This document shows, one piece after another, positions 311 to 57,068 of a DNA stretch of 58,927 bases. The position numbers and the translations under genes are program-made. Origin of the DNA: Desulfobacterales bacterium (GTDB lineage: Bacteria > Desulfobacterota > Desulfobacteria > Desulfobacterales > JAUYIZ01); contig JAUYIZ010000236.1 of the NCBI GenBank assembly GCA_030688615.1, positions 1-58,927 on the forward strand, in the 5' to 3' direction. Positions within the stretch are counted from its first letter, which is position 1, and every line of letters starts with the position of its first letter. The notes beneath the pieces were generated by a model that was given only the letters and a program-made list of their open reading frames with translations, did not search any database and was not told the DNA's origin.

Positions 311-451
311 GTGCCCATCCATAAATGGCTATTTTCCGCAATACCTGCGTTGGGCTCCGAATTTCAATCCTCAAAATACTAAATGTATTCCTCCGGTTGG
401 AATTCTCGCCCGCCTTGATCTTGCAAAAACTATCTCATTTATGGATGGCAC
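311..451. mobile_element. 141-bp palindromic MITE-like element, type A termini
   Basis: Terminal IRs GTGCCCATCCATAAATG / CATTTATGGATGGCAC; flanking direct repeat TATTTC (305-310, 452-457); core shared with elements at 26579, 43177, 56927. Confidence 0.8.
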
Positions 452-493
452 TATTTCTCAATCTATAACTGTAATTTTAAACATATTTACCCA

Positions 494-1960
494 TTAGGCA
501 AGCAAAAGTTCTGCAGTTAGGATATTTCCCGTATGGGGCCCCACTTTAACGGCGTCATCAATCCGGTGCCCCGCGATCCATACGATTTTCCCCTGGCTGA
601 GCAAAATGGGACATTTTGACCGTTGGGCCCTGGACACCTTGTGGTCGATGAAATAATTTTTTACTTTTTGTGTGCCGGTCATGCCCAGGGGCGTAAACCG
701 GTCACCCGGGCGGACGTTTCTGACGGTCAGGGGAAGATGCAACCGGTCCATGTCCAAAAAAGCAACCCGGCCGCCCGCCCGCGAAAAATCTGGGAGACCT
801 TTTAAACCGGTCCGGGACAGCTTCAAATGAACGCCCGCCTCCTTGATCCAGAGCATGCCCATATCAGAAATCTGATATTCAAAAAAACCGGGCCCGGAAT
901 CATTCAGGCCGGCTTTTAATTTTGGCCGGCCCCCGCGCAAGGGGGTTTTTTCACGGGACAGGTAAAGAATGTCGTCGTTTTTATGGGCCCGAATACGGGC
1001 CGGAAGGTCAATACTGCCCCGGTCCGGCCCCCGGGTAATAAATTCTATAATCATATCGACATGTTGATAAGTTATCCGTTTTAAATCCCCTTTGATTTTG
1101 ATCAGCGCCATCCGGATCATGCGTCGTGCTGCGGCCCCGTGGACATTCAACAGTTTCGGCACCGAGAGGCTTATGGATGTCTTCCGGGCCTGGATCAGCG
1201 CATTTTCAAAAAGCGGCGCAACCGTCTCATGGGCCCAGTGATCCTCGGACCTCATGACTTCGGCCAGCCGGTTTAGGGTCTGGACGATCCGGGGATTGTA
1301 GTGCTGCTGAATATGCGGAATCAAATGCTGCCGGATTCTGTTTCGCGTCCGGACCGGGTCCTTGTTGGAGGCGTCCAGGTGGTATGGGATGGCATTTGCG
1401 CGCAAAAACTCCAGCAGCTCGGACCGGGACGTCCGGATCAGCGGCCGGATGTACTTGTCCTCCCGCGTCGGGGGAATGCCGGAAAGCCCGAGGGGGCCGC
1501 TGCCCCTGAAAAGGGCCATCAGAACAGTTTCAGCGTTATCTTCCATGTGATGGGCCAGGGCGATGCGGTTGAAATTGTTCTGCCGGGCGGTTTCTTCAAA
1601 AAACAGGTAGCGAAGATGCCGGGCGGCCTCTTCCATGGAAAGCTTGTTTTGGTCCTGGTATTGGCGGACATCCAGTTTTTTCATAAAAAAGGGCAATCCA
1701 TATTTTTTTGCAAGGCAAGCAACGAAACGCGCCTCTTTTTCAGATGCCCGGGGGCGAAGACCGTGATTGAGATGGGCAATCCCAAGTGTTAAGGCGTACT
1801 TGGGGACCAGGGGCAGCAAAAGATGCAACAGAGACACCGAATCCGGTCCTCCGGACACGCAGACCAGTGCGGCATCCCCCACATTGAGCATTTTATGGTC
1901 TGTAATGGTCTGTTCAACAATACGTAATAGCTCGTTATAACCTTTGAGCGATGCTGGCAT
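494..1960 (-). CDS. tilS: tRNA(Ile)-lysidine synthetase
   Basis: PP-loop SGGPDS, AHLNHGLR, AHHMEDNAET, IRPL, RNRIR motifs; C-terminal TilS domain; true start may be slightly downstream. Confidence 0.95.
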   Translation of the reverse strand: MPASLKGYNELLRIVEQTITDHKMLNVGDAALVCVSGGPDSVSLLHLLLPLVPKYALTLGIAHLNHGLRPRASEKEARFVACLAKKYGLPFFMKKLDVRQYQDQNKLSMEEAARHLRYLFFEETARQNNFNRIALAHHMEDNAETVLMALFRGSGPLGLSGIPPTREDKYIRPLIRTSRSELLEFLRANAIPYHLDASNKDPVRTRNRIRQHLIPHIQQHYNPRIVQTLNRLAEVMRSEDHWAHETVAPLFENALIQARKTSISLSVPKLLNVHGAAARRMIRMALIKIKGDLKRITYQHVDMIIEFITRGPDRGSIDLPARIRAHKNDDILYLSREKTPLRGGRPKLKAGLNDSGPGFFEYQISDMGMLWIKEAGVHLKLSRTGLKGLPDFSRAGGRVAFLDMDRLHLPLTVRNVRPGDRFTPLGMTGTQKVKNYFIDHKVSRAQRSKCPILLSQGKIVWIAGHRIDDAVKVGPHTGNILTAELLLA

Positions 1961-2324
1961 GGATCAGCTCGGAAACTTTTTTATCCCACACGCCAAAAAC
2001 GCCGGAGCGAACGGAAACTTCGGTGATCTTTGGCGCGATACTTGTAATGGTTACCACAACCGGTGTCTCGTCGTTGCGCTTGGCGTCTAATCGGGCGCTT
2101 ATTTTATCTGCTGTTTTTTCAGTGATCTTAATCTGCAGGCTGTCCAGCGCTTCAATGCTCAGGTTGAGGATCTTATCATAGGGCTCCGCATAGGTTCTTT
2201 TCAGCTCGCCTTTAAAATAGCTGTACATACCGGAGCCGACCACCGCCCCGCCGACCAGCAGTTCGCAACCCGATATCACCAGACCACAGAAAAACAACAG
2301 AACGATTGCATTTTTTCGCATCAT
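1935..2324 (-). CDS. DUF3568-like lipoprotein
   Basis: Lipobox ISGC, Gly-rich segment, C-terminal TEVSVRSGVFG..D..SELIH..I..RL pattern. Confidence 0.7.
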   Translation of the reverse strand: MMRKNAIVLLFFCGLVISGCELLVGGAVVGSGMYSYFKGELKRTYAEPYDKILNLSIEALDSLQIKITEKTADKISARLDAKRNDETPVVVTITSIAPKITEVSVRSGVFGVWDKKVSELIHASIAQRL

Positions 2325-2402
2325 GGGCGCACCTTTTTTGTTTTTTACAAAACCGTCAATATTTATGTCACGATCGTCCTAATATGTCAACAAAAAATCA
2401 GG

Positions 2403-2449
2403 GTAACCGTTCACGGTTTACAGTTATCGGTTCGCGGTTAAAAAAACTG
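2403..2449. repeat. Heptamer-repeat element, left arm only
   Basis: GTAACCGTTCACGGTTTACAGTTATCGGTTCGCGGTTAAAAAAACTG, identical to 11297-11343. Confidence 0.85.
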
Positions 2450-2500
2450 AAGTTAGCGGAGAATCATGGAGTCTTCTTTGGAATCAATAACCAAAATGCT

Positions 2501-3682
2501 TCAATCGTTGCAAAGCTCAAACAGGGCGGCGGCCCCCATGCCCCCGCCCACACACATGGACACCACACCGTATCTGACCCCGCCCCGCTGCATATTGGCC
2601 AGCAGGGTCGCGCACAATTTCGCGCCGGTGCATCCTAAAGGGTGACCTAAAGCAATGGCGCCGCCGTGGATGTTTACCTTGTTGCTGTCGATTTTAAGCT
2701 CCCGGATGCAGTACAGGGACTGGGAGGCGAAGGCTTCATTGATTTCAAAAAGGCCGATATCTGAAATCTTCATACCGGCCAGATCCATAAGTTTGGGTAT
2801 GGCGTATCTGGGGCCGACCCCCATCTCCCCGGGCCGGCAGCCGACGGTGGCGTAATGTTTCAATCTGGCAACGGGGGTTATGTCCAGCTCCCGCAGCTTG
2901 TTTTCACTCATGATGACCGATGCCGCTGCGCCGTCGGTCATCTGGGAGGAGTTCCCGGCGGTCACACTGCCCCCTGCGGCAAATACGGGCTGAAGTTTGG
3001 CCAGGGTCTCCAAGGTGGTGCCGGGACGTATGCCGTCGTCTGCATGGACCAGGAAACTTTCTTTCTTAAACGTGCCGTCATCCTTTTGGACGTATTGGGC
3101 CGCGGGGGTCGGCACAATTTCCGCAAACAGGTTGTTTTTCACGGCCCGGACGGCCTTTGCCTGGGATTGGCAGGAAAATTCATCCTGTTGTTCCCTGGAA
3201 ACATGGTAGGCCCGGGCAATGTTCTCCGCGGTAATTCCCATGGAAACATAAAGCTCCGCGTGCTTTCGGGCATATTCCGGATGGGGCCGGGCAATATTGC
3301 CGGGCATGGGAACATACGTCATGGATTCGACGCCGCCGCCGATGACGATGTCGGACCAGCCCGCCATCACCCGCAGGGATGCCAGCGCAATCGCTTCAAT
3401 GCCGGACGCGCAGAATCTGTTCACGGTGGCGCCGGAAACTTCCACCGGGAAACCGGCCATCTGGGAAGCCACCCGGCCGATATTCAGGCCCTGCTCGGCT
3501 TCCGGAAATGCACAGCCGATCATGACATCTTCAACATCTTCTTTTTTCAGGTTCGGGGTTTTCCCCACGGCGCCGGAGAGGATGAATGAAAGCAGGTCCT
3601 CGGGACGGGTGTCCTTAAAGGCGCCTTTATTCTGTTTGCAGCCCGGCGTTCGAATGGATGTGACGATGTAGGCGTCTCTCAT
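2501..3682 (-). CDS. fadA: Acetyl-CoA C-acyltransferase (thiolase)
   Basis: NRFCASG, NEAFA, GGAIALGHPLG, SMCVGGGMG thiolase motifs. Confidence 0.93.
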   Translation of the reverse strand: MRDAYIVTSIRTPGCKQNKGAFKDTRPEDLLSFILSGAVGKTPNLKKEDVEDVMIGCAFPEAEQGLNIGRVASQMAGFPVEVSGATVNRFCASGIEAIALASLRVMAGWSDIVIGGGVESMTYVPMPGNIARPHPEYARKHAELYVSMGITAENIARAYHVSREQQDEFSCQSQAKAVRAVKNNLFAEIVPTPAAQYVQKDDGTFKKESFLVHADDGIRPGTTLETLAKLQPVFAAGGSVTAGNSSQMTDGAAASVIMSENKLRELDITPVARLKHYATVGCRPGEMGVGPRYAIPKLMDLAGMKISDIGLFEINEAFASQSLYCIRELKIDSNKVNIHGGAIALGHPLGCTGAKLCATLLANMQRGGVRYGVVSMCVGGGMGAAALFELCND

Positions 3683-3700
3683 TTTTTTCCTCCGGAAAAT

Positions 3701-3842
3701 CCGTTTACAGTTACCGGTTTACAGTTTACGGTTTTTAATCTCCCTGCAGCAGGCAGCGGGAGCTTCAATTCATACTTTCGAATCCTTCCGCTACCTTCTG
3801 CTTTTACACCGTGAACCGCTAACTGTAAACCGTGAACGATTA
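3701..3842. repeat. Heptamer-repeat inverted arms around a ~70-bp spacer
   Basis: GTTTACAGTTACCGGTTTACAGTTTACGG ... CCGTGAACCGCTAACTGTAAACCGTGAAC. Confidence 0.75.
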
Positions 3843-3893
3843 GGTGATTTTTTAGCAAAACAGCTTTGTGCGAAGCCGTCGAGCCTGAGTTGC

Positions 3894-6299
3894 CTAATTT
3901 CTTAGCGGTTTGCCGGTCTCCAGCATATGCTTGACCCTGGCAAGGGTCTTTTCTTCCTGCCAGAAATCGATAAACGCTTCCCTTTCCAGGGCCAGGATGA
4001 CTTCTTCATCCACCTGGCTGTTGTCCCGGACATCGCCGCCGGCAATGACGAAGGCAATCCGCCGGGCGAGAAACGCATCATACTCGGTAATGAATTTGCC
4101 TTCGAGCATGTTGTGAAGTTCCGCTTCCACGAGACCCTGAGCGGCTTGGCCCATGACTTGAATTTTTCGCTTTACCGGCGGCGCATAACCGTCTGCTATC
4201 ATCCGCAAGACCTCTTTTTTCGCTTCACCGATTAGAAAATCCCGGTTGAAAACGATCCGGTCCCGGGGTCCGAGAAAACCGTTTTTCCGCGCGTCGGCCG
4301 CGGAGGCGGAAACCCGGGCCAGGCTGATGGACGTGAAAACCGGGACGAACAGTTTTGCCAGATCCACTTTTGCGACGGTTGCGGGAAGGGTGCAGAGAAA
4401 TTTTTTCCACAAGTTCAGGCACCCGCCGCCTGCCGGCAGAAGGCCCACGCCGATTTCCACCAGCCCCATGTAAAGCTCGGCATGGGCGACGATCCGGTCC
4501 GCGCCCAGGCAGACTTCGCAGCCGCCGCCCAGGGCCATGCCGTAGGGCGCCGCCACGACGGGCAGGCTGGAATATCTGGCGGTTTGAATGCCCTCCTGTC
4601 CTTTCCGGACAAACGCCTCCATTTGCGCATATTTTTTTTCCCCGGCCAGGGCCGCCATGTATTTGAGGTCGCCACCGGCGGAGAAAGCGCCCGGCACGTC
4701 GCCGGTTTGACTGCCGATGACGATTCCTGCGGCGTTCCGCCGGGCATAGTCGAAACTTTCCTGAATAAAGTCCACGATCTCTTCCTGGATCAGATTGAAA
4801 CGGGTGTGAAATTCGATACACCAGACCCCGTCACCCAGGTCGATCAAAGAAGCGCTGCGGCAGGTGTTCACCACCTTGTTGTTCCGTTTGAGCCGCTTTA
4901 AGTCGATCACGTTGCGGTTCACGGGCGCCGGCCGATAATCCCGGGTGGTAAAGTCATAGAACAGGGTTTTATTCTTTTGGACCCGGTAAAAGGACGAATG
5001 GCCGGACGCGAGCATCTGGTTGACGTTGTCCGGAACAACAAACCCGTCCTGCCGCATTTTCCGCACCGATGGTTCTAAACCGATGGCGTCCCAGGTCTCG
5101 AAAGGGCCCATCTGAAAATTGTATCCCCATTTCATCGCGTTGTCGGCCTCCAGGACGGTGGCGGCAATTTCGGGGATTCTGCCGGCGGCATATATGAGAT
5201 GGGATGCCAGGACTTTCCATGCATATCGGGCCCCCTTGTCCTGGCCGAAGACCACGGTTTTCATCTTATCCGGCAGCGATTCGGCTTTGCCTGCTGCCAG
5301 CAGGCAGTCAAAGGCGGGCGTATCGTAGGGTTCGTATTCCAGGGTTTCCGGGTTGATGACCTTGCGCAGGACCTTGCCGTCCCGGGTGAGTTCTGTTTTA
5401 TAAAACCCCGCGCGGGTCTTTTGGCCCAGGAGATTTTTTTGGATCATCTGCTGCACAAAATCCGGCAGTATGAAACAATCCCTGCTTTCGTCATGGGGCA
5501 CCAGATCATGGGTGTGCCCGGCGATCTGGCCCAGGGTGTCCAGCCCCACCAGATCGGCGGTTTTAAACATGGCCGTCTTGGGCCTTCCCATAACCGGGCC
5601 GAAAAGCGCGTCCACCTCGGGGATGGTGAGGCCTTCTGCCAGCATAACCCGGATGGCCAGGATCATGGCATGGAGCCCGATCCGGTTCCCGATGAAGCTG
5701 GGCGTGTCTTTGGCCTGCACAACGCCCTTGCCCAGCCGGTATTGGGCAAAATCGGCCATAAACCCGATTATATCCGGCCGGGTGGCTTTCCCGGGGATAA
5801 TTTCGATCAGCTTCATATACCTGACCGGGTTAAAAAAATGCATGCCGAGGAAGTATTCCTGGAAGTCCTGCCCCAATCCCCGGGACATGGATTTCAGGGG
5901 AATTCCCGAAGTGTTGGTGGAAACCACCGTGTCCGGGCGCCTGACGGTTTCGATGCGTTTTAACAGGGCCTGTTTTATCTTCAGGTTTTCCACCACCGCT
6001 TCGACGATCCAATCGCAGGTGGAAAGCCTGTCAAGGTCATCTTCCAGGTTGCAGAGTTTGACGCGGTCCGCATCGGCAGGGTCCATGAACAACGGCGGCG
6101 CGGCCGCAAGCGCGCTGTCCAGGCCGGCTTTGGCCAGCCGGTTTCTGGCCGCCGTGTCGCTTTTTCCAGCTTCCTTTACATCTGCCGGCACCATATCATA
6201 CAGCAGCGTCCGGATTCCGGCGCTTGCCAGGTGAGCGGCGATGCCGCGTCCCATGATCCCGGCGCCGATGACCGCTGCCCGGGTAATTTTCCGAATCAT
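3894..6299 (-). CDS. fadN: 3-hydroxyacyl-CoA dehydrogenase / enoyl-CoA hydratase (FadN-type)
   Basis: GAGIMG Rossmann motif, HFFNP, C-terminal crotonase (GGGCE, GLVE.GVGL.P), ends TGKPLRN; upstream of thiolase. Confidence 0.9.
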   Translation of the reverse strand: MIRKITRAAVIGAGIMGRGIAAHLASAGIRTLLYDMVPADVKEAGKSDTAARNRLAKAGLDSALAAAPPLFMDPADADRVKLCNLEDDLDRLSTCDWIVEAVVENLKIKQALLKRIETVRRPDTVVSTNTSGIPLKSMSRGLGQDFQEYFLGMHFFNPVRYMKLIEIIPGKATRPDIIGFMADFAQYRLGKGVVQAKDTPSFIGNRIGLHAMILAIRVMLAEGLTIPEVDALFGPVMGRPKTAMFKTADLVGLDTLGQIAGHTHDLVPHDESRDCFILPDFVQQMIQKNLLGQKTRAGFYKTELTRDGKVLRKVINPETLEYEPYDTPAFDCLLAAGKAESLPDKMKTVVFGQDKGARYAWKVLASHLIYAAGRIPEIAATVLEADNAMKWGYNFQMGPFETWDAIGLEPSVRKMRQDGFVVPDNVNQMLASGHSSFYRVQKNKTLFYDFTTRDYRPAPVNRNVIDLKRLKRNNKVVNTCRSASLIDLGDGVWCIEFHTRFNLIQEEIVDFIQESFDYARRNAAGIVIGSQTGDVPGAFSAGGDLKYMAALAGEKKYAQMEAFVRKGQEGIQTARYSSLPVVAAPYGMALGGGCEVCLGADRIVAHAELYMGLVEIGVGLLPAGGGCLNLWKKFLCTLPATVAKVDLAKLFVPVFTSISLARVSASAADARKNGFLGPRDRIVFNRDFLIGEAKKEVLRMIADGYAPPVKRKIQVMGQAAQGLVEAELHNMLEGKFITEYDAFLARRIAFVIAGGDVRDNSQVDEEVILALEREAFIDFWQEEKTLARVKHMLETGKPLRN

Positions 6300-6425
6300 A
6301 TTGCCTCCCCTGCAAAAAAAATCTTGATGCTTGTGCCGTAAGGCCGTTGCGCCCTCTTTTTCATTTTTGTTTATTTTCAGCGTGTGTTATGATACGTCAT
6401 TATATCTTAACAAAAATCAGCCGAA

Positions 6426-6755
6426 TTGGTAAGACAAATAAAAGGATGCCGTCTCGTGCCTGTGGAAAACGATGTGGTTCTGATTTATCTGGAAGACAAG
6501 CCTCTGGCTTTTGCGCGCATCGAGGATATTTCCCGGGACGCCAAAGCCGGCTGGTATCAGGTCAAACTGCTTTTTCTGCAGGTGCCGCTGCGGGCCCTGA
6601 CATGGATATTGAGAGATGTTTACATAGACGGCGCTGAATTTACCATGGATGGGAAAAGGATGCGCCTGGAAAAAGTGGTGTGCCCGGAAGAGAAAACAGA
6701 AGAAAAGAAACCCCCGGCCCGGGTAATTTCCCTGGCGGACCGAAAGAAAAAGTAA
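6426..6755 (+). CDS. Conserved hypothetical protein (start uncertain, possibly GTG near 6462)
   Basis: Protein-like ORF heading the DUF1848-dusB run; C-terminal ARVISLADRKKK. Confidence 0.65.
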   Translation: MVRQIKGCRLVPVENDVVLIYLEDKPLAFARIEDISRDAKAGWYQVKLLFLQVPLRALTWILRDVYIDGAEFTMDGKRMRLEKVVCPEEKTEEKKPPARVISLADRKKK

Positions 6756-6771
6756 TTCTCCCTGTCTGAAC

Positions 6772-7656: not shown

Positions 7657-8642
7657 AAATCGGAACAATTCACCTGAGCAATCCGACGGTGCTGGCGCCC
7701 CTGGCCGGGGTTTCGAATCTTCCTTTCCGCCTTCTGGCCAGGCAGGCCGGGTGCGCCCTGGTCTATTCCGAGATGATCAGCGCCAACGGTCTCGTTTATG
7801 GCTCCCAAAAAACCAGACAGCTTCTGGACAGTACCCCGGAAGAGAAACCCCTGGCGGTTCAGATTTTCGGTGCGGACCCTTACATCATGTCCGAAGCGGC
7901 CAAAATCGTTGAAAATTCCGGCGCCGGCATTATCGATATTAATTCCGGGTGCTCGGTCAGAAAGATTCTAAAAACAGGCTCCGGCTCCGCGCTGATGAAA
8001 GCGCCTGCCACGGCCCGATCCATTTTCGCGGCCGTTTCCCGGGCGGTGAAAATACCCGTGACCGTGAAAATCCGAACCGGATGGGATCCCTCGGGGGATC
8101 AGGCGGTTCAGCTGGCGCTGCTGGCGCAGGACTGCGGCCTCCAGGCCGTTGCCGTCCACCCGCGAACCGCCGGACAGGGATTCCGGGGCAGGGCCGACTG
8201 GTCCGTTATCGCGGCGGTCAAAGAAAATGTTTCCATCCCTGTTATCGGCAACGGGGACATCATGTCCGCGGAAGATGCCCTGAACATGAGAGATGAAACC
8301 GGCTGTGATGCGGTGATGATCGGAAGGGGCGCCATGGGCAACCCGTTCATATTCTCCCAGGTCCTGGCGCGCTTTAGAGGGGAAGAGCCCGTACCGGCGG
8401 GCCTGGAAGAGCGATTTGAAATCATGGTCCGTTATCTGGACGGCGTGGTAGATTATCTTGGCGAACCACAGGCGTGCTGGCAGCTCAGAAGCCGTCTGAA
8501 CTGGTTCGTCAGGGGCATGCGCTGGAGCAGCCATTTCCGGGAGTCCATCAAGCATATCTCTTCCCGGCAGGAGGCCCTGGAAATTATCGAAGCTTATCGG
8601 GAGCGGCTCAGGGATGAAAAAAAAGCTATTGGGGGGGTCTGA
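7653..8642 (+). CDS. dusB: tRNA-dihydrouridine synthase B
   Basis: LAPLAG, IDINSGC, GSGSALM, VTVKIRTGW, IGNGDI, MIGRG motifs. Confidence 0.92.
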   Translation: MKIGTIHLSNPTVLAPLAGVSNLPFRLLARQAGCALVYSEMISANGLVYGSQKTRQLLDSTPEEKPLAVQIFGADPYIMSEAAKIVENSGAGIIDINSGCSVRKILKTGSGSALMKAPATARSIFAAVSRAVKIPVTVKIRTGWDPSGDQAVQLALLAQDCGLQAVAVHPRTAGQGFRGRADWSVIAAVKENVSIPVIGNGDIMSAEDALNMRDETGCDAVMIGRGAMGNPFIFSQVLARFRGEEPVPAGLEERFEIMVRYLDGVVDYLGEPQACWQLRSRLNWFVRGMRWSSHFRESIKHISSRQEALEIIEAYRERLRDEKKAIGGV

Positions 8643-9979: not shown

Positions 9980-10024
9980 TTCTTTATCCTATAACTCAAT
10001 TGATCACACAGAAATTTTCTTTTT

Positions 10025-26578: not shown

Positions 26579-26720
26579 AAGACCTTTGCAAAACCCCCTA
26601 TTTTGCCCGATTTCTGTGTCAGGCTCAAATTTTAATCCTCAAAATACTAAATGTATTCCTCCGGTTAAAATTTTCGCCTTCCTTGAACTCGAACAAAATT
26701 TGACATTTTTCAAAGGTCTC
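26579..26720 (+). mobile_element. 142-bp MITE-like element, type B termini
   Basis: AAGACCTTTGCAAAA...TTTTCAAAGGTCTC; TSD GCGTC (26574-26578, 26721-26725). Confidence 0.9.
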
Positions 26721-28640: not shown

Positions 28641-28846
28641 TTCTGACCTCCCGAGTTTTTTTGAAAAGTTGCTGACTATATAAACGTATTTAAGGGCTTG
28701 CGCAAAAATGGCCATCTATGGATGGAAACTTTTTATTCAGCCGCATAAAACTCCAGACTCCTGTCTGGAGATGCAGCGGCTCGGCTGAAAGCCGCCAAGC
28801 TTGTTTGTTGGTGCTGAAGATGCCCCCGGCTCCTGCCGGGGGAGGG

Positions 28847-38419: not shown

Positions 38420-38432
38420 AATATCCTCCCGT

Positions 38433-38461
38433 AACGAAATTGAGCATTTTCCAAAGGTCTC
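38433..38461 (+). repeat. Truncated right end of the type B element
   Basis: AACGAAATTGAGCATTTTCCAAAGGTCTC, near-identical to the end of the 56927 copy. Confidence 0.75.
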
Positions 38462-43084: not shown

Positions 43085-43361
43085 AAGCCATTAAAATTTA
43101 GACAGGATCAACAGGATTTATGGGATTTTTTTAAAAAATATCTTGTCAATCCAGTTAATCTTGTCAAAGAGTCCTTGAGACCTTTGCAAAACCCCCTATT
43201 TTGCCCGATTTCTGTGTCAGGCTCAAATTTTAATCCTCAAAATACTCAATGTATTCCTCCGGTTAAAATTTTTGCCTTCCTTGAACTCGAACAAAATTTG
43301 ACATTTTTCAAAGGTCTCTCCTTGCATTTATGTCCAAACATTTTTGAGCTTATTAGTAATT
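43085..43361. repeat. 130-bp ACAGGAT-arm repeat interrupted by a type B element
   Basis: Colinear with the uninterrupted copy at 56601-56730. Confidence 0.85.
43177..43318 (+). mobile_element. 142-bp MITE-like element, type B termini
   Basis: GAGACCTTTGCAAAA...TTTTCAAAGGTCTC; TSD TCCTT (43172-43176, 43319-43323). Confidence 0.92.
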
Positions 43362-43381
43362 CTGTCAAAGAATTCTTTCAA

Positions 43382-45478: not shown

Positions 45479-45481
45479 GGT

Positions 45482-47377: not shown

Positions 47378-47422
47378 TTTTTTTTAACCGTGAACCGGTA
47401 ACTGTAAACCGTGAACGGTTAC
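47378..47422. repeat. Heptamer-repeat element, single arm (reverse orientation)
   Basis: Reverse complement GTAACCGTTCACGGTTTACAGTTACCGGTTCACGGTTAAAAAAA, near-identical to the 2403 and 11297 arms. Confidence 0.8.
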
Positions 47423-47429
47423 GAAATAT

Positions 47430-48671: not shown

Positions 48672-48699
48672 CTATATCCTCCTGCTGCAACCGGATGAG

Positions 48700-48930
48700 T
48701 TACGAGTGTGCATTGATGTAATTGATCGCATCCTGCACGGTAGCCAACTTTTCGGCATCTTCATCGGAGATGTCGATTTCGAATTCTTCTTCCATGGACA
48801 TGATGAGCTCCACCAGGTCCAGCGAGTCCGCGCCCAGATCGTCGGCAAAAGAGGCTTCCGGAACTACTTCCTCGATATCCACACTAAGTTTTTCCGCGAT
48901 GATTTTTTTTACTTTATCCTCGACTGACAT
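48700..48930 (-). CDS. acpP: Acyl carrier protein
   Basis: [16 protein letters not shown]. Confidence 0.97.
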
Positions 48931-48962
48931 TTTTGATGCTCCTCCTTGAGTATTGATTAACT

Positions 48963-49709: not shown

Positions 49710-49711
49710 GA

Positions 49712-51382
49712 TTATTTCCTCCTGAATAAAATATCTGCAACATCGTCCATGTCGTTGATGACATTTTGACAGGTTCGGTTAAGGTCATGATAAGAAACGG
49801 CGTCCATAAAATCCGAGATGGTTTTTTCATCCAATACCCCGGTGCCCCGCAATATCGTATTGATATTCCTGGCCACCAGCTGGGCGGTTTCGCTTGCGAA
49901 AATCCTGGACATCAACCGGATCTTATCCGCTTCGGGACGCCGCGCCCGGGCCAGGGCATCCGCCTTGCGGGCCAGGCTGGCCCCCACTTCAACATGGGTC
50001 ATCATGTCGGCCAGTGCGAACATCACATATTGCTTGCGGGTCAAACCGTTCTCATGGGCGCACATGATGGTTTCATTGAGTGCTTTTGCGGCCAGGCCGT
50101 AGGCGCCGCAGCCGGCACCGGGCAGGGAAAGGTCAAGTTTTTCCATTTCAGCGCCGATGGACAGGTAGTGCTCGCCTTTTGTTTTACGGGTTTTTTTCCA
50201 ACGGAACGTGCTGATGATATTCTGCTGAATTTCGCTGGTCCCCTCATAAATACAGGTGATTTTAACATCTCGCTTGATCTTCTCAACCTGGTAGTCGAAA
50301 ATATAGCCGTAACCCCCGAGGGCCTGGATGGCGTCCTCGGCCGCTTTATTTGCCGCTTCCGTGGTGAAATATTTGGAAATGGACCCTTCCACCTCCAGGT
50401 CCTGCTGGCCGGAGTCAAATTTTAAGGCGACTTCTTCCATGTGGGCGGCAGCGGCTTCCAGCCGGACCGCGTGGGGCACAACCAGTTTGTGGGTATATCC
50501 CTGCTTTTCCGACAGGGAAGAGCCGAACTGAATTCTCTCTTTGGCGTAAGGGATAACGATATCAAGCGCTGATTCACCGGCGCCCAGGGCCATGGCGGCC
50601 ACCATCAGCCGGGTGTAGCCGAATACGGCGTTTGCCTGTTTCATGCCTTTTCCGGGAACCCCGCCGATGAGATTGTCCAGCGGGACCCATACATCGTCAA
50701 ATGAAAGCGGAGAGGTATTGGACGCCCGGATGCCGTGCTTTTCCTCACCCTTGCCCGGGGAGAATCCTTTGGTCCCTTTTTCAACAACAAAAAAAGAGGG
50801 CCCCTCCGGAGTTCTGGCCAGCACCGTGACGAAATCCGCGTATCCGCCATTGGATATGAACTGCTTATTTCCGTTAATCCTGTATCCGGTGACCTGTCCG
50901 GCATCGTTGAAAACCGGATCCGCGGTGGTCTTTAAGGCGGCAAGGTTGCTGCCGGCATCCGGTTCGGTCACTGCGTAGGCGACCAGGGCTTTTCCATCCG
51001 CAATGTCGCCCAGCCATTTTTCCTTCTGCGCCTCGGTCCCGCCCACGAGCAAAGGATCCGCCCCGAGCTGAATCGCGAAAAACCCGGTGGCCACGCCCAG
51101 GCATATCTTGGCCATTTCCCGCGTCACCGCACAGCAGTCCCGGGCCCCGCCGCCCGCGCCGCCATAGGCCTCAGGGATGAAAATAAGCTGCAGACCGATG
51201 TCCGGGCCCAGCATCCGGCGAATCGTTTTTTCGGGAAAATATTCCTCTTTGTCAAATTCCAGAATCTGTTCTTTGATCAGAAGCCTTTTTCTCAACTGCC
51301 GGATCGTATCCACCGTCATTTTTCTGGAAGCAGGATCGAGGCCGATTAAATTGTCTGCGGTGGAGCCTGATGCGGCGGCCAT
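49712..51382 (-). CDS. Acyl-CoA dehydrogenase family protein with C-terminal extension
   Basis: AVTEPDAGS, NGNKQFISNG, YAKER.QFG, QALGGYGY, IYEGTSEIQ. Confidence 0.9.
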   Translation of the reverse strand: MAAASGSTADNLIGLDPASRKMTVDTIRQLRKRLLIKEQILEFDKEEYFPEKTIRRMLGPDIGLQLIFIPEAYGGAGGGARDCCAVTREMAKICLGVATGFFAIQLGADPLLVGGTEAQKEKWLGDIADGKALVAYAVTEPDAGSNLAALKTTADPVFNDAGQVTGYRINGNKQFISNGGYADFVTVLARTPEGPSFFVVEKGTKGFSPGKGEEKHGIRASNTSPLSFDDVWVPLDNLIGGVPGKGMKQANAVFGYTRLMVAAMALGAGESALDIVIPYAKERIQFGSSLSEKQGYTHKLVVPHAVRLEAAAAHMEEVALKFDSGQQDLEVEGSISKYFTTEAANKAAEDAIQALGGYGYIFDYQVEKIKRDVKITCIYEGTSEIQQNIISTFRWKKTRKTKGEHYLSIGAEMEKLDLSLPGAGCGAYGLAAKALNETIMCAHENGLTRKQYVMFALADMMTHVEVGASLARKADALARARRPEADKIRLMSRIFASETAQLVARNINTILRGTGVLDEKTISDFMDAVSYHDLNRTCQNVINDMDDVADILFRRK

Positions 51383-51589
51383 CTACTTGGCATCCTTTTT
51401 GACGCTGAGTTCATCTTTGGTCGGAACAACTTTCCGGCCCTTGTAAGTGCCGCAGTTCGGGCAGGCGTTATGGGGTAATTTTCTTTCACCGCACTGGGCA
51501 CAGGTGCCCAGTATCGGGGCATCAATTTTTTGATGCGTGCGCCGTTTGTCCCGCTTTGACTTGGAGGTTTTATGTTTGGGTACTGCCAT
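51383..51589 (-). CDS. rpmF: 50S ribosomal protein L32
   Basis: [17 protein letters not shown], CxxC...CxxCG.YKG. Confidence 0.97.
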
Positions 51590-52156
51590 AAGTAATCTCC
51601 TAACTATTTGTTTTAATTATTTGTTTTAATTATATTACTCTTATGATAAAAGTTAACAATAAGTAATTTAAAACGTGGGCCTTGTCAAGCAATTTTTTAT
51701 TTTTTTTATTTTGTCCTGTTCATGACATGTTTTTCATATTTCATGAACACCCCTCATGGCTTTTGAAAATCCGTGGTGATATTAATTATTTGATAACATT
51801 CATAAAATAAATTAAGTTTTGGTGTCGGCCGTTTTTTTTCTTCATCGCTGCGGGGGCACGGGATTTGAATTCAACCGGCGCATGACGACTACTGCCGAAG
51901 ATCAAAACCATGTATATTGCCGGCTGCTTTTTCCTGATAGTACTCTTAATAAGTAAAAAAAAGCAATCTCATATGATGGGATGAATAATTAAAAATATAT
52001 ATAAAACAATATATTGAAAATAATATGGTATCCACGCCAGTAAAAAATGACTCGTGGTCATGGCTGCTATGAGAAATTCTGGAAATTACTCGATGAACTT
52101 GCCCTAAGTATAATTGACACCTTTGAAAAAAGTCTTGCGAACTGTTAAAAGAGGTA

Positions 52157-53566
52157 ATGATGGATACGATTATCACACGCTTTCCCCCCAGTCCCACCGG
52201 CTTTCTTCACATCGGCGGCGCCCGCACGGCCCTTTTCAACTGGCTGTATGCACGGCATATGAAAGGAAAATTCGTCCTCAGGATTGAAGACACGGACATC
52301 GAACGTTCTTCGCAGGAATCGGTGGATGCCATATTTGAAGCGCTCGAATGGCTGGGGATTGACTGGGACGAAGGTCCCTTTTTTCAGTCTCAAAGGCTTG
52401 CTCTTTACCGGGAGTATTCTAAAAAACTCATCGATGCCGGCCAGGCCTACTATTGCACCTGCCCGCCCGAAAGCCTTGAGCAGATGAGAAAGGCGGCGCT
52501 CGAAGCCGGAGAAAACCCGAAATATAACGGCACATGCCGGGAAAAGGGGCTCGGGCCCTCAGGCCGGGCCGTCATCCGTCTGAAGGCGCCGGTGGCAGGA
52601 ACCACCGTGCTGGAGGATATTATCAAGGGGACGATTGTATTTCAGAATGCCGAGCTGGATGATTTTATCATCGTCAGAAGCGATGGGATGCCGACATACA
52701 ATTTCGCCGTGGTGGTGGATGACCTTACCATGGGGATCAACACCGTCATCCGGGGCGACGATCATGTGATGAACACGCCCAAACAGATACTCATTTATCA
52801 GGCCTTGGAAAGTTCCCTGCCCGCTTTTGGACACGTCCCCATGGTACTGGGCGGCGACCGGAGCCGTTTGAGCAAACGCCACGGCGCCGTGTCCGTGACC
52901 GCCTACAGGGAAATGGGGTATCTTCCGGATGCCGTCATCAATTATCTGGTCCGCCTGGGCTGGTCGTTCGGGGATCAGGAATTTTTCACCAGAAACGAGC
53001 TGATCCAGAAGTTTACCCTGGACAATATCGGCCGGTCGCCGGGAATTTTTAACCCGGAAAAGCTTCTGGCACTGAATGCCGATCATATTAAAAGCGCGGC
53101 GCCGGAATATCTTGCCCGGCACCTGCCCGGGTTTTTAGAAAAAAAAGGATTCATTGCTGCCCAGGGCCCTTTCCTCAACCAGGTCATCGAGACCCTGCAG
53201 ACACGCAGCAAGACCCTTTTGGATATGGCGGACAGTGCCGTGTTCTATTATCAGGGCATCGTCGAATATGAAGAAAAGGCGGCGGATAAATTTCTAACCG
53301 CCCCGTATCTGGAAGCTCTTGAATTGCTTGCGGAACAGTTTGAAAATTTAAACCCGTTTGACCAGCCGAATCTTGAAAATGCATTTAAAACGGTCATGGA
53401 AAAGACCGGGCTGAATTTTGGCAAAATCGCCCAGCCCGTCCGGGTGGCCCTTACTGGAAAAACAGCAAGCCCCGGCATCTTTGAAATCATCCTGGTTCTG
53501 GGAAAATCGCGTGTCATCGCCAGACTCCGGGGGGCCGCTCTATTTATAATGAAACGAGAATCTTAA
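52157..53566 (+). CDS. gltX: Glutamate--tRNA ligase
   Basis: RFPPSPTG.LHIGG, LRIEDTD, IRGDDH, LSKRHG. Confidence 0.96.
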   Translation: MMDTIITRFPPSPTGFLHIGGARTALFNWLYARHMKGKFVLRIEDTDIERSSQESVDAIFEALEWLGIDWDEGPFFQSQRLALYREYSKKLIDAGQAYYCTCPPESLEQMRKAALEAGENPKYNGTCREKGLGPSGRAVIRLKAPVAGTTVLEDIIKGTIVFQNAELDDFIIVRSDGMPTYNFAVVVDDLTMGINTVIRGDDHVMNTPKQILIYQALESSLPAFGHVPMVLGGDRSRLSKRHGAVSVTAYREMGYLPDAVINYLVRLGWSFGDQEFFTRNELIQKFTLDNIGRSPGIFNPEKLLALNADHIKSAAPEYLARHLPGFLEKKGFIAAQGPFLNQVIETLQTRSKTLLDMADSAVFYYQGIVEYEEKAADKFLTAPYLEALELLAEQFENLNPFDQPNLENAFKTVMEKTGLNFGKIAQPVRVALTGKTASPGIFEIILVLGKSRVIARLRGAALFIMKRES

Positions 53567-53587
53567 TGTTGTGAAAGGAGAAAAAAA

Positions 53588-54586
53588 ATGAAAAAGCGAT
53601 TGGGATTTACCATGGGATGCACGTTGCTCTTCGTTTTGCTGTTAGGGTTGCCCGCGATCGTGACGGCCGCTGAGAAGTCACCCGGCATTCTGTCCTTTGC
53701 CACCCTGCCCCAGGGCAGCAGTTCCTATGCCGTGACGGTGGTGGTAAGCGATGTGATGAGCAGGTTTTCCGGGCACAAGGTCACCGTGGAACCGGTGGGA
53801 CCTCCGGGAAAATTCTGGCCGTTGATGGAATCCGGTGAGGTTCACATGGGATTCGGCGCCATCATCACCACCGAAAATATCCTCAAGAGAATGAAGTTGA
53901 CTTCTCAGACCTCGAACATACGCGCCATCGGTTCCGGCCAGTATACCCCCAACGTTTTTCTCGGTCGCGGGGATGCCGGCATCGAAAGCATAGCCGACCT
54001 CAAAGGAAAAAAAGTGCTCACCCACTTTACGTCCGACACCCATAACCGAACGGTAGCGCTCGTTCTTGACCACTACGGTCTGACGGGCAAGGTAACCGAA
54101 CTTAAAATAACATCGCCGCCGATGGTTTATACTTCTCTGACCGAAGGCCGGGTGGATGCCGCTTTCTTTTCCCTGTCGGCCCAGGCCGCAGAGGTGAAAC
54201 GGTCGCGGGGACTTAAGGTGCTGGGATTTCCTGAGGATGTCGTCAACGAGATTTCCAAGAAGGAGCCCTCCCTGATGCCCTATAAGTACCCGAAGGGCTT
54301 TCTGGGTCTTCTGGATAAAGATACCCCTACGATTGCGTACCGGCTGATTCTTTTCATCCATAAAAATGTTCCGGATAATGTAGTATTCGACCTGATGAAA
54401 GCGCTCAACGAGCACCCGAAAGAACTGAAAGCCGGTTTTGCCCTGGCCGCCGAATATACCATGGACGAAATTCCCTGGGAGACCACGCTGCCTTTCCATC
54501 CCGGAGCGATCCGCTTTTATAAAGAAAAGGGCAAATGGAATGACCGTGCCGAGGTCTTGCAGAAGAGACTGCTGGCCGGAAAATAG
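53588..54586 (+). CDS. TAXI family TRAP transporter solute-binding protein
   Basis: AT...GSS.Y, SIADLKGK, GRVDA, PFHPGA.RFYKE.G. Confidence 0.88.
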   Translation: MKKRLGFTMGCTLLFVLLLGLPAIVTAAEKSPGILSFATLPQGSSSYAVTVVVSDVMSRFSGHKVTVEPVGPPGKFWPLMESGEVHMGFGAIITTENILKRMKLTSQTSNIRAIGSGQYTPNVFLGRGDAGIESIADLKGKKVLTHFTSDTHNRTVALVLDHYGLTGKVTELKITSPPMVYTSLTEGRVDAAFFSLSAQAAEVKRSRGLKVLGFPEDVVNEISKKEPSLMPYKYPKGFLGLLDKDTPTIAYRLILFIHKNVPDNVVFDLMKALNEHPKELKAGFALAAEYTMDEIPWETTLPFHPGAIRFYKEKGKWNDRAEVLQKRLLAGK

Positions 54587-54679
54587 GGTTTTGGTAAACG
54601 GTCCGTTCCTTAATTGGGCGGGAAACTCTCGCCGAACTGTAAAAACTACGGGCACAGGCTGACAGGAGGGGGGCCAGTG

Positions 54680-56584
54680 ATGCAGGAATCGAGCAGGACG
54701 AGACAGTTCAGCGGCCCGGCGGGCAAAGTAACTTCCGCGGTTGCGATTATTTTTTCGATATATGAACTGCTTTACGTGCTCGGATTTTTTTCCACCGGCT
54801 ATGCATTCCTGTATCCGGGGCAGTTCCGGGTGCTGGCGCTGGCCCTTATCCTGACCGTGGTCTTTTTATTTCTGCCGGCGCACAAATCCGCACCGCGGGA
54901 TAAGGTCCCCTGGTATGACATCCTTGCGGTGGTTTTATCCTGCCTGGTGTGCGGATATATATTCGTGATTTATGAGGCTCTGGTGGAACGGCCGGTCATC
55001 GCTGCGGCCCATGAAACCGTGCTGGGTATTGTTGCCATCGTCGTTATTTTAGAGGCGGCCCGGCGGGCCGTGGGGATGGTCATACCGGTTCTGGCCGCCG
55101 TTTTCTTTGCCTATGCCCTGTGGTGTGATTATCTGCCCGGGTTTCTGGAGGGCAGGGGATACTCGCTGACCCGGGTGGTTGCCAGTTCCTATCTGTTCGA
55201 TGGCGGCCTGTTCGGTATGGTTCTGCATGTGGTCGTCATCGTAATTTTTATGTTCGTGCTGTTTGGCAGCTTTCTGCAGGCCACCGGCGCCAGCAAGTTT
55301 TTTGTGGATTTATCCCTGGCGCTTTTCGGCCATGTCCGGGGGGGGCCGGCCAAGGCGGCGGTGATCGGCAGCAGCCTCATGGGGATGGTCAACGGCAGTC
55401 CCCTGGCCAACGTTGCCACCACGGGCGTGGTGACCATCCCCATGATGAAAAACCTCGGTTATCGGCCCACCTTTGCCGGCGCGGTGGAATCTGTGGCATC
55501 CACCGGCGGGACGCTCCTGCCCCCGGTAATGGGCGCGACGGCCTTCCTCATGGCTGAATTCCTCCAGATCCCTTATCTTGCCGTATGTGTCGCGGCGCTG
55601 TTGCCGAGTATTCTTTATTATCTTGCGGTCTTTATCATGGTGGATCTTGAAGCGGTGAAATGCGGCCTTGTCGGCATGGACCGCAAGGATTTGCCCTCGC
55701 TGAAAAAAACCTTGAAACAGGGCTGGCATTATCTCCTGCCGGTTGTGGTATTGATATATTACCTGGCTGTTCGTGCGTATTCTCCGGAAGTGTCCTGTGC
55801 CTATGCCCTGGCCGTGCTGCTCGTCGTCAGCGCTTTTAAAAAGGAGACCCGGATGACTTTGAAAAAGCTTATCGACGCATTCGAGGCTACGGCCGTAACG
55901 ATGACGCAGATCGCCCCGGTGGCGTCGGCCATAGGGATCATTGTGACCTGCATCGCGCTGACCGGTTTGGATTTAAGGCTGTCCGGCGGGCTGGTGCAGA
56001 TGGCCGGCGGCAACCTCGCCGTCCTGATGATACTGGCCGCCATAACCAGTTTGATATTGGGCATGGGGGTTCCGCCGTTATCCTCTTACGTCATGCTGGC
56101 CCTTCTGGTGGCGCCGGCTTTTGTCAGCCTGGGCGTGACGCCGATTGGCGCGCACCTGTTCATCCTGTATTTTACCACGATTTCCTTTATCACGCCGCCC
56201 GTATGCGTGGCGGTTTACGTGGCCTCCGGGATTTCCGGCGCCCCGTTCATGCAAACGGGCATTGAGGCCGTTAAGCTGGGGGTGGTGGCATTCATCGTTC
56301 CATTCATGTTTATCCTGCATCCTGTTCTGCTGCTGATGGGAACACCCCTTAAGATCTTCATCGCGGTTCTGACCAGCAGTATCGGCTGTGTCGCGCTGTC
56401 CATCGCCGTCGCCGGTTATTTTTTCAAACCTGTCGCCTGGTCTGAAAGAGCGCTGATGGGCATTGTGGCGCTGCTGTTGATTCATCCGGACTGGTGGAGC
56501 GATGCGCTCGGGCTTGGCGTTTTTGGCATCCTGTTTGTTTTCCACTGGGTGAAAAGAAAGAAAACTCCGGCCCCGGTGACCTGA
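54680..56584 (+). CDS. TRAP transporter fused permease (4TM/12TM)
   Basis: RGGPAKAAV, ASTGG...PPVMGA, LGMG.P, TPPV; ATG 54680 after AGGAGG. Confidence 0.92.
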   Translation: MQESSRTRQFSGPAGKVTSAVAIIFSIYELLYVLGFFSTGYAFLYPGQFRVLALALILTVVFLFLPAHKSAPRDKVPWYDILAVVLSCLVCGYIFVIYEALVERPVIAAAHETVLGIVAIVVILEAARRAVGMVIPVLAAVFFAYALWCDYLPGFLEGRGYSLTRVVASSYLFDGGLFGMVLHVVVIVIFMFVLFGSFLQATGASKFFVDLSLALFGHVRGGPAKAAVIGSSLMGMVNGSPLANVATTGVVTIPMMKNLGYRPTFAGAVESVASTGGTLLPPVMGATAFLMAEFLQIPYLAVCVAALLPSILYYLAVFIMVDLEAVKCGLVGMDRKDLPSLKKTLKQGWHYLLPVVVLIYYLAVRAYSPEVSCAYALAVLLVVSAFKKETRMTLKKLIDAFEATAVTMTQIAPVASAIGIIVTCIALTGLDLRLSGGLVQMAGGNLAVLMILAAITSLILGMGVPPLSSYVMLALLVAPAFVSLGVTPIGAHLFILYFTTISFITPPVCVAVYVASGISGAPFMQTGIEAVKLGVVAFIVPFMFILHPVLLLMGTPLKIFIAVLTSSIGCVALSIAVAGYFFKPVAWSERALMGIVALLLIHPDWWSDALGLGVFGILFVFHWVKRKKTPAPVT

Positions 56585-56600
56585 GCCGCATTTACGAATG

Positions 56601-56730
56601 AAGTCATTAATATTTAGACAGGATCAACAGGATTTGTGGGATTTTTTTTAAAAATATCTTGTCGATCCAGTTCATCTTGTCAAAGAGTCCTTGCGTTTAC
56701 GTCCAAACATTTTTGAGCTACTCAGTAATT
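56601..56730. repeat. 130-bp ACAGGAT-arm repeat (empty site)
   Basis: Matches 43085-43361 minus the 142-bp element and one TCCTT copy. Confidence 0.85.
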
Positions 56731-56926
56731 TCCAGCGATGCGGCCTGCCTGGCGCACGCCGCAATCGCAACGGGATGCAGCGCAGCATCCCGCCAATGGC
56801 GGGAGACTTTTTACGGAACCGTCAAAATTAACTTGACTTCCTGGCCTGATTCAGGTACCAGAAGAATTCCATTGATGCCCGTCCACGATTTTTTGGGGAC
56901 ACAAGGGCGGGCCTGCTTCAAGAGCC

Positions 56927-57068
56927 GAGACCTTTGAAAAATGCTCAATTTCGTTCAAGTTCAAGGAAGGAGAAAATTTTAACCGCAGGAATACATTTAG
57001 TATTTTGAGGATTAAAATTTTAGCCTGACGCCGAAATTGGGCGAAAGGGGGCGTTTTGCAAAGGTTTC
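56927..57068 (-). mobile_element. 142-bp MITE-like element, type B termini (reverse orientation)
   Basis: GAGACCTTTGAAAAA...TTTTGCAAAGGTTTC; TSD GAGCC (56922-56926, 57069-57073). Confidence 0.9.

Follow-up and report, generated by a model that had tools for sequence, protein, structure and literature searches.

Miniature elements of Desulfobacterales that join one covarying hairpin interior to the ends of several insertion-sequence groups

Miniature inverted-repeat transposable elements, or MITEs, are commonly regarded as decayed insertion sequences (ISs) that need only their ends. What, then, is to be made of MITEs in which the interior is the most conserved part? The question is raised by the window analysed here, which is the whole 58,927-nucleotide contig JAUYIZ010000236.1 (C286) of a draft Desulfobacterales genome (GCA_030688615.1, here G000; 4.78 Mb in 429 contigs, 52% G+C, 92.9% completeness, 6.2% contamination). 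It carries four short elements, one of type A (A1) and three of type B (B1, B2 and B3), in which one hairpin-forming interior is joined to two different sets of terminal inverted repeats, or TIRs, and flanked by target-site duplications (TSDs) of two lengths.

The answer that we favour, and to which as a whole we give slightly better than an even chance, is that these are type II MITEs spread by transposition, that their hairpin module is foreign to the ISs whose ends they carry, that these ends have been swapped, and that selection acts on the single-stranded fold of the module. Each element would then consist of a hairpin-forming passenger of ~105 bp set between termini of ~18-20 bp that copy the ends of IS5-superfamily ISs. 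New here is a defined covarying fold with fixed loop bases, placed on the ends of several transposase groups.

Anatomy, copies and target sites

A1 and B1 are collinear over their full length. Their 33-nt cores are identical (33/33), their interiors agree at 83 of 106 positions, and their outer 18 bp agree at 7 positions at each end. An earlier, sequence-only reading of the window had described a shared core of ~100 bp between unrelated termini. The core is indeed shared, but the sharing is not limited to it and runs from end to end; the termini do differ as described, yet a loose G.G.C...AAA skeleton is common to all end types (by eye). That reading had correctly located the four elements and their TSDs, of 6 bp in A1 and 5 bp in B1 to B3 (Table 1). 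The type B elements have ends of the general form GAGACCTTTGCAAAAC…TTTTTCAAAGGTCTC; B1 and B2 are identical at 139 of 142 positions, and B3 belongs to a different B subfamily (127/142 identical to B1). A1, which is matched at 323-440 by the covariance model of the module (R1), measures 141 bp against the 142 of its siblings through the loss of one base from the right TIR.

The elements are short, non-coding, dispersed and multi-copy, with TIRs of 16-20 bp. They are mobile type II MITEs with TIRs and TSDs, non-autonomous as had been proposed, and the set observed is far beyond chance. With up to 6 substitutions allowed, the 33-nt core is present 85 times in G000 (B-type ends in 57 copies, A-type ends in 26, rare variants in 2), and R1 has 102 matches there. 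Exact 6-bp TSDs flank 15 of the 19 complete A copies; exact 5-bp TSDs flank 26 of the 44 complete B copies, and 8 further B copies have one mismatch. The exact type A duplications are so uniform at positions 1 (T in 15/15), 2 (A in 14/15), 5 (T in 15/15) and 6 (A in 13/15) that the type A target can be written TANNTA.

B2 interrupts a ~135-bp repeat, and an intact copy of that repeat within the window is a paralogous empty site that confirms the 5-bp duplication TCCTT. Furthermore, for a B copy on contig C186 the empty allele was seen on contig C293 (97% identity across 223 bp), and measured against it the duplication of that copy is 4 bp. The 20 relatives compared belong to other families; G001, for example, has the flanking genes in synteny without the MITE, and the flanks in these relatives are too diverged to have given a base-exact empty site. 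Copies are intergenic: by crude gene calls, only 2 of the 85 copies in G000 and 2 of 117 external matches (12 others were dropped from this count) lie inside a called open reading frame (ORF). A 5-codon ORF in the elements themselves (ATG TAT TCC TSY GGT TAA/TGA) was rejected, its ATG lying in the variable loop and its frame not being conserved (by eye).

Several observations accompany these insertions. The ~135-bp repeat is a family of at least 35 genome copies with 81-96% identity, in which TCTTGTCAA occurs twice per unit. B-type insertions often duplicate pyrimidine-rich targets, and TCCTT makes up 3 of the 26 exact TSDs. This pentamer, the reverse complement of the Shine-Dalgarno-like AAGGA, is also a TSD in two other genomes (copies in G004 and G016 were examined). 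Many contig pairs of G000 overlap at their ends or in segments with 85-97% identity, which suggests strain variants co-assembled in the draft.

Insertion-sequence partners and exchange of ends

To judge by their ends, ordinary DDE insertion sequences of the ISNCY_1, IS5_4 and IS5_3 types appear to supply the termini and TSDs of these elements. The partners of type A form two groups, one of 1.68 kb with the TIR TAGTGTCCATCCAGAAAC (L157, L158, L186) and one of 1.83-1.93 kb with the TIR TAGTGCCTGAACGAAAAC (L159, L164, L166, L170, L171, L172, L177). Both are flanked by 6-bp TSDs (TAATTA, TAAATA, TACATA). Their transposase of 463-464 amino acids combines DUF772 with DDE_Tnp_1 and scores 451 bits against NCBIfam NF033593 (ISNCY_1; cut-off 325). 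The IS end GTGTCCATCCA[TG]AAA(T/C) matches the MITE end GTG[CT]CCATCCATAAAT, and both go with 6-bp TANNTA. We take these ISs to be the ISDol1 group of ISfinder, with duplications of 6-7 bp. At E <= 1e-30, 71 of the 301 genomes sampled from the order have the ISNCY_1 family.

The partners of type B (L214-L225) are ~1.42-1.47 kb long and encode a transposase of 360-375 amino acids that scores 167 bits against NF033581 (IS5_4; cut-off 140). Their ends read GAGACCTTTGCATAACCCCC… at one side and GAGAG[CG]TTTGAAAAAT… at the other, and this left-right asymmetry is mirrored in the type B MITE (…TTTGCAAAAC vs …TTTGAAAAAT), whose two unlike ends match the IS ends GAGACCTTTGCA[TA]AACCCCC and GAGA[CG]CTTTGAAAAAT. 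These ISs were delimited by searching for B-like termini; the automatic TIR finder had missed their ends, as well as many ISNCY_1 loci. The B terminus occurs in 85 of the 301 genomes, with up to 129 matches in one genome, and more specifically in 13 of the 22 genomes with an IS5_4-type IS against 72 of the 279 without (Fisher p = 0.002, related genomes being non-independent).

A third IS group, frameshifted and of IS5_3 type (850-950 bp), has the ends GAAGCCATTTCAAAACC (TA duplication) or GAGCTTATCCGTAAATAA (TNA), which match further MITE end types. One IS of this type lies in G000 itself (C165:178-1102; 925 bp, DUF4096 + DDE_Tnp_1_2, TIR GTGCTTATCCGTAAATA, TSD TTA), and its two overlapping frames at an A-run suggest a programmed frameshift. 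It is the only IS of the genome with A-like ends, and it was rejected as the mobiliser of type A: with its IS5_3 type and 3-bp TSD it is a relative only. Scans of G000 for TIR pairs spaced 600-4500 bp apart found no A- or B-ended IS, nor did a self-BLAST for repeats of at least 400 bp together with a look at contig C103, and matching TIRs were seen at 0 of the 8 DDE_Tnp_1 loci checked there. A search of five MITE-rich genomes with NF033580 gave two weak matches only, both of them ISNCY_1 elements.

The TSDs of 6 and 2-3 bp, and more tentatively those of 5 bp, track the matching IS groups, in keeping with the earlier proposal that the ends set the cut geometry. In the account that we favour, type A would be moved in trans by the ISNCY_1 transposase (~464 amino acids), yielding 6-bp TANNTA duplications, and type B by the IS5-family transposase of the IS5_4 type (~370 amino acids), yielding mostly 5-bp duplications, with other end types probably served by IS5_3-type elements. 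The agreement between IS and MITE stops after ~18-20 bp, and it is because the similarity is confined to these termini that the MITEs are classed as type II. In 384 kb of IS loci the core was matched twice only (L171 and L189), both times in a separate MITE copy; the copy in L189 has B-type ends, and that in L171 has GAGCCA-type ends unlike the TIR of its IS. The hairpin module is not derived from the partner ISs and would have originated outside them.

These partners also bear on the nature of the mover, which the sequence-only reading had sought in an enzyme that recognises the structure (HUH/RAYT, reverse transcriptase or nuclease). A structure-specific enzyme of the HUH/RAYT, integrase or reverse-transcriptase kind that recognises the hairpin and moves the element would suit a hairpin with a favoured strand and a genome with eight Y1_Tnp (HUH) matches. 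However, the TIRs and fixed-length TSDs match those of DDE ISs, the IS loci examined are without the core, and B-ended elements of 37-42 bp exist without any core. Where a Y1_Tnp match and a core share a contig they lie ~7 and 14 kb apart (C241, C426), and the other listed Y1 contigs carry no core copy, or only a B-type copy without the exact core (C164, C132). To our knowledge, REP/REPIN-type elements lack TSDs. We therefore consider such a mover extremely improbable. A REP/REPIN system with RAYT was likewise rejected for elements with TIRs and TSDs, none of the eight matches adjoining a core copy. The Y1_Tnp matches themselves are at C164:1820-2182 and on C241, C223, C132, C51, C426, C5 and C280, and three lie in frames of 324-340 amino acids.

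At least five end classes are found attached to one and the same interior. The end types seen on it include GAGACC…, GTGCCCATCC…, GTGCCTGAACG…, GAGGCAG…, GAAGCC… and GGG[TC]A[TC]CTC…, among others, and GAGCCAGTTTC…, which goes with 4-bp duplications (by eye). A tree of interiors with 160 tips in five end classes, from which 14 unclassified copies were left out, takes 13 Fitch changes of end type; the minimum possible is 4, and with shuffled labels the changes average 70.5 and never fall below 63. The closest A and B interiors are 6.7% apart (A-ended copies at L059 and L100 against the B1 type of G000), the median A-B distance being 26%. From the changes on the tree and these close interiors it follows that ends have been exchanged repeatedly, and in some cases recently.

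The modular organisation proposed earlier is borne out from the other side as well, as A-like and B-like ends occur on other interiors. Among the eight A-like end pairs without the core in G000, five are 'type C' elements with a different apical module, 140 bp (three) or 176-177 bp (two) in size; a fourth 140-bp A-like pair, at the end of contig C131, is the reverse-strand form of type C. On the B side there are two elements of 190-200 bp, three deletion forms of 70-72 bp without the apical half, and five mini elements that consist of TIRs and a short variable loop only (Table 1). The window contains two remnants of type C. Inside one of them, which has no clear TSD of its own, B3 is nested 5 bp within the A/C-like terminus, and such nesting could be one route by which new combinations arise.

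Other small insertions were seen in and around the MITE copies. GC-rich palindromic insertions of 20-35 bp are nested in copies at L092, L044, L065, L072, L084, L007, L102 and L064, and several of them share one point in the conserved CCTTGA segment. Further repeated hairpins, for example CCCCGCAGTCCCGCCCATGGCGGGACGGGG, occur in C46, C324, C7 and C401, and an element of ~130 bp is inserted into the B copy at C401:7983-8173.

Table 1. Elements and associated repeats in the window (plain positions) and on other contigs of G000 (contig:positions).
Feature	Position	Strand	Length	TSD	Ends and remarks
A1, type A MITE	311-451	+	141 bp	TATTTC, 6 bp (305-310 and 452-457)	TIRs GTGCCCATCCATAAATGG/…CCATTTATGGATGGCAC; core 366-398
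B1, type B MITE	26579-26720	+	142 bp	GCGTC	left AAGACCTTTGCAAAAC, right …TTTTTCAAAGGTCTC; core 26634-26666
B2, type B MITE	43177-43318	+	142 bp	TCCTT	within another ~135-bp repeat
B3, type B MITE	56927-57068	-		GAGCC (56922-56926 and 57069-57073)	core on minus strand
Halves of ~135-bp repeat interrupted by B2	43120-43176 and 43324-43380
Intact ~135-bp repeat copy	56598-56730	+			uninterrupted target …AAGAGTCCTTGCG… of B2
Short element with A/C-like ends	56875-57089	-			ATGCCCGTCCACGAT ... CCATTTATGGATGGAAAC; boundaries by eye; type C remnant; hosts nested B3
tRNA-Gln (CTG)	57099-57172				10 bp from the A/C-like terminus hosting B3
Solo A/C-like terminus fragment	28700-28729	+			GCGCAAAAATGGCCATCTATGGATGGAAAC; type C remnant
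Solo right-end fragment of B element	38430-38461	+			ACGAAATTGAGCATTTTCCAAAGGTCTC
Type C element	C11:23-198		176-177 bp	TAAATA	A-like ends and subterminal arms; apical module …GCGACGTACCTTCGTACGTC…
Type C element	C138:3865-4041		176-177 bp	TAGTTC	as above
B-ended elements without core	C401:6793-6992, C132:22153-22342		190-200 bp	AACCC	TIR GAGACCTTTGCATAAC, the IS5_4-type IS end; unrelated interior
Mini B-ended elements (five)	C22:3578-3614, C277:49094-49130, C23:2964-3004, C45:62815-62855, C347:1373-1414		37-42 bp

Fold, covariation and strand asymmetry of the interior

Every element folds as a single long hairpin, with z-scores of -4.7 to -8.7. The compensating changes quoted in the sequence-only reading are all present (GAATTTCAA/TTGGAATTC vs AAATTTTAA/TTAAAATTT; GGGC/GCCC vs AGGC/GCCT; TTTG..CGA/TCG..CAAA vs TTCG..CAA/TTG..CGAA). 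In an alignment of 110 sequences, namely the 4 of the window and 106 external ones (129 pattern matches minus 11 at locus edges and 12 whose core is broken at its 3' end), pairing is seen in 97.2% of cells, as against 29-49% when the partners are slid, and 0 of 500 shuffles match the observed covariation. With 174 sequences and the other strand, 27 pairs give 95.7% paired cells as against 22-51%. At several pairs, three or four different Watson-Crick combinations occur (in one case AU 95, GC 52, UA 12 and CG 4). These covariation counts leave out one alignment (A3), which mixes the strands of palindromic matches.

Most external copies had been collected with an exact 20-base core pattern, and the apical stem seemed invariant only through the bases that this pattern imposed. 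Where copies were gathered by BLAST or the covariance model, the apical stems are AATAT/ATATT, ACGTAGC/GCTACG, ACGTAT/ATACG and TTTAT/ATAAA, and in these divergent copies the TCCTC and CCTSYGG beside the stem stay fixed. The paired cells, the shuffles and the replaced apical stems together uphold the earlier claim that the fold itself, beyond the sequence, is conserved.

An account without any function would be that one old MITE has simply diversified, that the core owes its conservation to biased collection, and that the arms are kept complementary by template switching within quasi-palindromes. It would fit an external set found by an exact 20-base pattern, copies within a genome that are recent bursts (as with B1 and B2, 139/142), the absence of a gene-orientation bias and the strong tree structure of end type (13 changes vs ~70 for shuffled labels). 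We nevertheless find it quite unlikely, as copies from other families replace every stem, the apical one included, and still keep TCCTC and CCTSYGG. Palindrome correction, moreover, would erase asymmetric loops and favour neither strand, and the divergence between A1 and B1 is greater in the termini (7/18) and the interior (83/106) than in the core (33/33).

The replacement of apical stems between conserved flanks also argues against a duplex DNA operator and for a single-stranded structure with fixed loop bases. The core might still be pictured as a duplex DNA site, spread by MITEs, at which a dimeric host protein binds, either an IHF-like bender or a regulator. All 174 pattern-collected copies have AATAC-N5-GTATT without change, its bases being fixed by the pattern, and the 5-base spacer varies; A-tracts flank the core, and an IHF site is known in Correia elements from the cited part of PMC3184786. 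Such a site is very unlikely in our view, since divergent copies swap the half-sites for unrelated complementary sequences, the two halves are consistently asymmetric, and no WATCAANNNNTTR match survives the loop variation (by eye). No conserved IHF consensus was seen by eye in the elements, and IHF, LexA-, BirA- and dif-like sites were dropped after comparison by eye with consensus sequences only.

The two strands of the hairpin are not equivalent. As RNA, the minus strand is the more stable of the two in 167 of the 174 copies, with a mean difference of 14.8 kcal/mol, and it has 958 G.U pairs against 368 on the other strand. This asymmetry has the same direction in all six end classes, and it also holds beyond the central 43 nt (in B, for example, 355 vs 78). 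The 3x2 purine loop formed by CC-RSA-GG…UY-GA-GG of the favoured strand lies beside a tandem G.U step that is fixed in 171 of the 174 copies. A canonical kink-turn was rejected by eye, the loop being 3x2 and not 5x2.

In the favoured account, selection would act on the single-stranded fold of the strand AACC-RSAGG-[stem-loop]-UY-GAGGAUU, most likely in the transcript. The extended hairpin would leave its stems free to covary and keep two features fixed, the tandem G.U step and the internal 3x2 loop rich in purines, as a putative binding or processing site for a trans-acting factor. This site may favour the persistence or spread of the element, whichever transposase serves it. GGA motifs resembling CsrA or Shine-Dalgarno sites were noted by eye on the favoured strand, and a role for them is our conjecture.

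The fold could instead matter as single-stranded DNA (ssDNA). A snap-back hairpin, for instance at a replication fork, would bring the termini together for the DDE transposase, and the conserved loop would nucleate the hairpin or bind a host DNA protein. This possibility is consistent with an element that is one hairpin throughout with its TIRs as the basal stem, with strand asymmetry in the absence of gene-orientation bias, and with a module that works with several transposases, as a transposase-independent aid would. On the other hand, G.T pairs are weak in DNA, so that the fixed tandem G.U (171/174) is more RNA-like, and both the IS partners and the 37-42-bp mini elements go without such a hairpin. 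We know of no evidence of ssDNA use in IS5/ISNCY transposition, and on balance an ssDNA role seems unlikely to us.

A further idea is mimicry of a CRISPR repeat by the core, whether as a solitary unit of such a repeat or as an RNA decoy of anti-CRISPR kind. On the favoured strand of type A, GAGGAUUGAAAU comes after a hairpin; the 32-nt repeat of contig C404, read on its opposite strand, ends in GGATTGAAAC, giving a 9-base identity (GGATTGAAA) in type A copies only, and Rfam returns weak matches to CRISPR-DR9 and DR45. These matches, however, reach 11-14 bits where the gathering scores are 37-45 (E-values 3.5-7); UUGAAA has its G in 37 of the 174 copies (A in 101, unscored in 36), a position that covaries as a stem pair; and no core arrays were seen among the listed matches of the exact-pattern scan. 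Mimicry of this kind is barely plausible. G000 has two CRISPR arrays, at C404:~7800-8430 (32-nt repeat GTTTCAATCCACGCCCCCGCACGGGGGGCGAC) and C138:~30-470 (repeat …GTCGGAAGGATTGCCCCGATTCGAGGGGATTGAGAC).

Several results weigh against the account that we favour as a whole. With regard to the partners, ISNCY_1 is represented in G000 by a fragment only (C107:11169-11660, a 200-amino-acid open frame covering model positions 10-170 of 444), and no IS5_4-like transposase was found there (E <= 1e-40). The missing intact ISNCY_1 is not proof of absence, because the draft is 92.9% complete and split into 429 contigs. Readable TSDs were found in only two of the IS5_4-type ISs examined, TATAC (5 bp) in L216 and AAAACT (6 bp) in L218, and current mobility in G000 rests on one polymorphic site. 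With regard to the fold, conservation of the core looks inflated by the exact-pattern collection, the shuffle tests overstate significance because the copies are related, and the strand asymmetry is not proof of RNA because G.T pairs form in ssDNA too. With regard to transcription, tandem gene contexts show no orientation bias (47 with the stable strand in sense vs 36, p = 0.27; crude gene calls), splitting 20:9 in G000 and 27:27 in other genomes, and no sigma-70-like promoter or intrinsic terminator was predicted within B1. Sigma-54, sigma-70 and outward -35 promoters were rejected, as inspection by eye gave no consistent match and none was predicted in B1.

Going one step further, the hairpin may be a selfish unit, a structured RNA or ssDNA with a protein-binding loop that adopts the termini of active IS5-superfamily transposases of at least three groups. 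We offer this tentatively, as possible but rather doubtful. If true, it would explain how the module outlives any single IS lineage across an order. If the loop does bind a factor, these elements would make a tractable bacterial system for two questions that the authors of a study on coral elements, discussed below, left open: how non-autonomous elements succeed beyond their TIRs, and how they switch transposases.

Distribution and comparison with known systems

With scoring of up to 150 candidates in each genome, the covariance model R1 recovers the module from 13 of 21 genomes: G000 and 12 of the 20 relatives, each relative representing a different family. Matches number 102 in G000, 117 in G001 and 137 in G011, so that the module reaches more than 100 copies per genome and extends across many families of sulfate-reducing Desulfobacterales. 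A scan of 185,579 species genomes with the exact pattern matched at least 119 stretches. Among the 80 matches listed, nearly all are from Desulfobacterales-type metagenome-assembled genomes; two Bacillota, one Actinomycetota and one archaeal bin fall outside this group. Of the four, one is a chance match, and the remaining ones carry whole MITEs and are perhaps binning errors. A single viral-contig match to the exact pattern, in GC-rich coding-like sequence without MITE ends, was read as chance. Much of the fragmentation seen in these assemblies is explained by the module together with its end classes, which could be entered in Rfam or IS/MITE libraries as an annotation aid.

Searches of Rfam and of the literature gave neither an Rfam family nor a described IS-derived MITE for these elements, two of the outcomes that the sequence-only reading had named as speaking against it. 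In Rfam, nothing reaches the gathering threshold for the elements, and in the window only a tRNA passes; the best sub-threshold scores near the elements come from a microRNA precursor (22 bits, threshold 117) and CRISPR-DR45 (14 bits, threshold 37). A full-text literature search found no published prokaryotic description, and the tables of a 2024 MITE census (PMC11602168) could list such elements.

Type II MITEs, as described in the cited part of PMC10969869, share only their TIRs with an IS. The present elements resemble them in being small, non-coding, multi-copy and intergenic, with TIRs and a TSD. They differ from that description in that one interior is common to families with TIRs of different IS groups, and in that this interior, with its covarying fold, is conserved better than the TIRs. 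Compared with the ISs themselves (ISNCY_1 and IS5 families; NF033593, NF033581, NF033580), the MITE termini match, as do the TSD lengths (for type B more tentatively), whereas the ISs are 0.85-1.9 kb long, encode a transposase and lack the hairpin module.

Among structured bacterial repeats, bcr1 of Bacillus is similar in being ~155 bp long, with 5-bp direct repeats and compensatory changes that keep an RNA-level structure (Delihas 2011, PMC3184786). In contrast to the present module, bcr1 is cruciform-like with two stem-loops and belongs to one genus, and the cited part of that paper makes no mention of multiple ends or IS partners. Correia elements of Neisseria and ERIC elements of Enterobacteriaceae are, like ours, long-hairpin MITEs, of 100-160 bp. 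The same part of PMC3184786 describes embedded motifs in them (an IHF site, promoters), their co-transcription and their effects on mRNA stability, and they have a TA duplication and a single end type; here TSDs are of 5 and 6 bp, and the partner ISs are of the ISNCY_1 and IS5 types.

The nearest precedent is provided by the CMITEs of corals (Wang et al. 2010, PMC2872659), as far as the cited part of that work describes them. Their internal region is more conserved than their TIRs, its origin is left unexplained, and the authors weigh cross-mobilisation by related transposases. The CMITEs are eukaryotic and piggyBac-related and all have one terminal motif, and the cited part reports neither a fold nor covariation. 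The elements described here, in contrast, have bacterial hosts, at least three transposase groups of the IS5 superfamily and TSDs of 2-6 bp, and their hairpin is a defined one whose loops are fixed.

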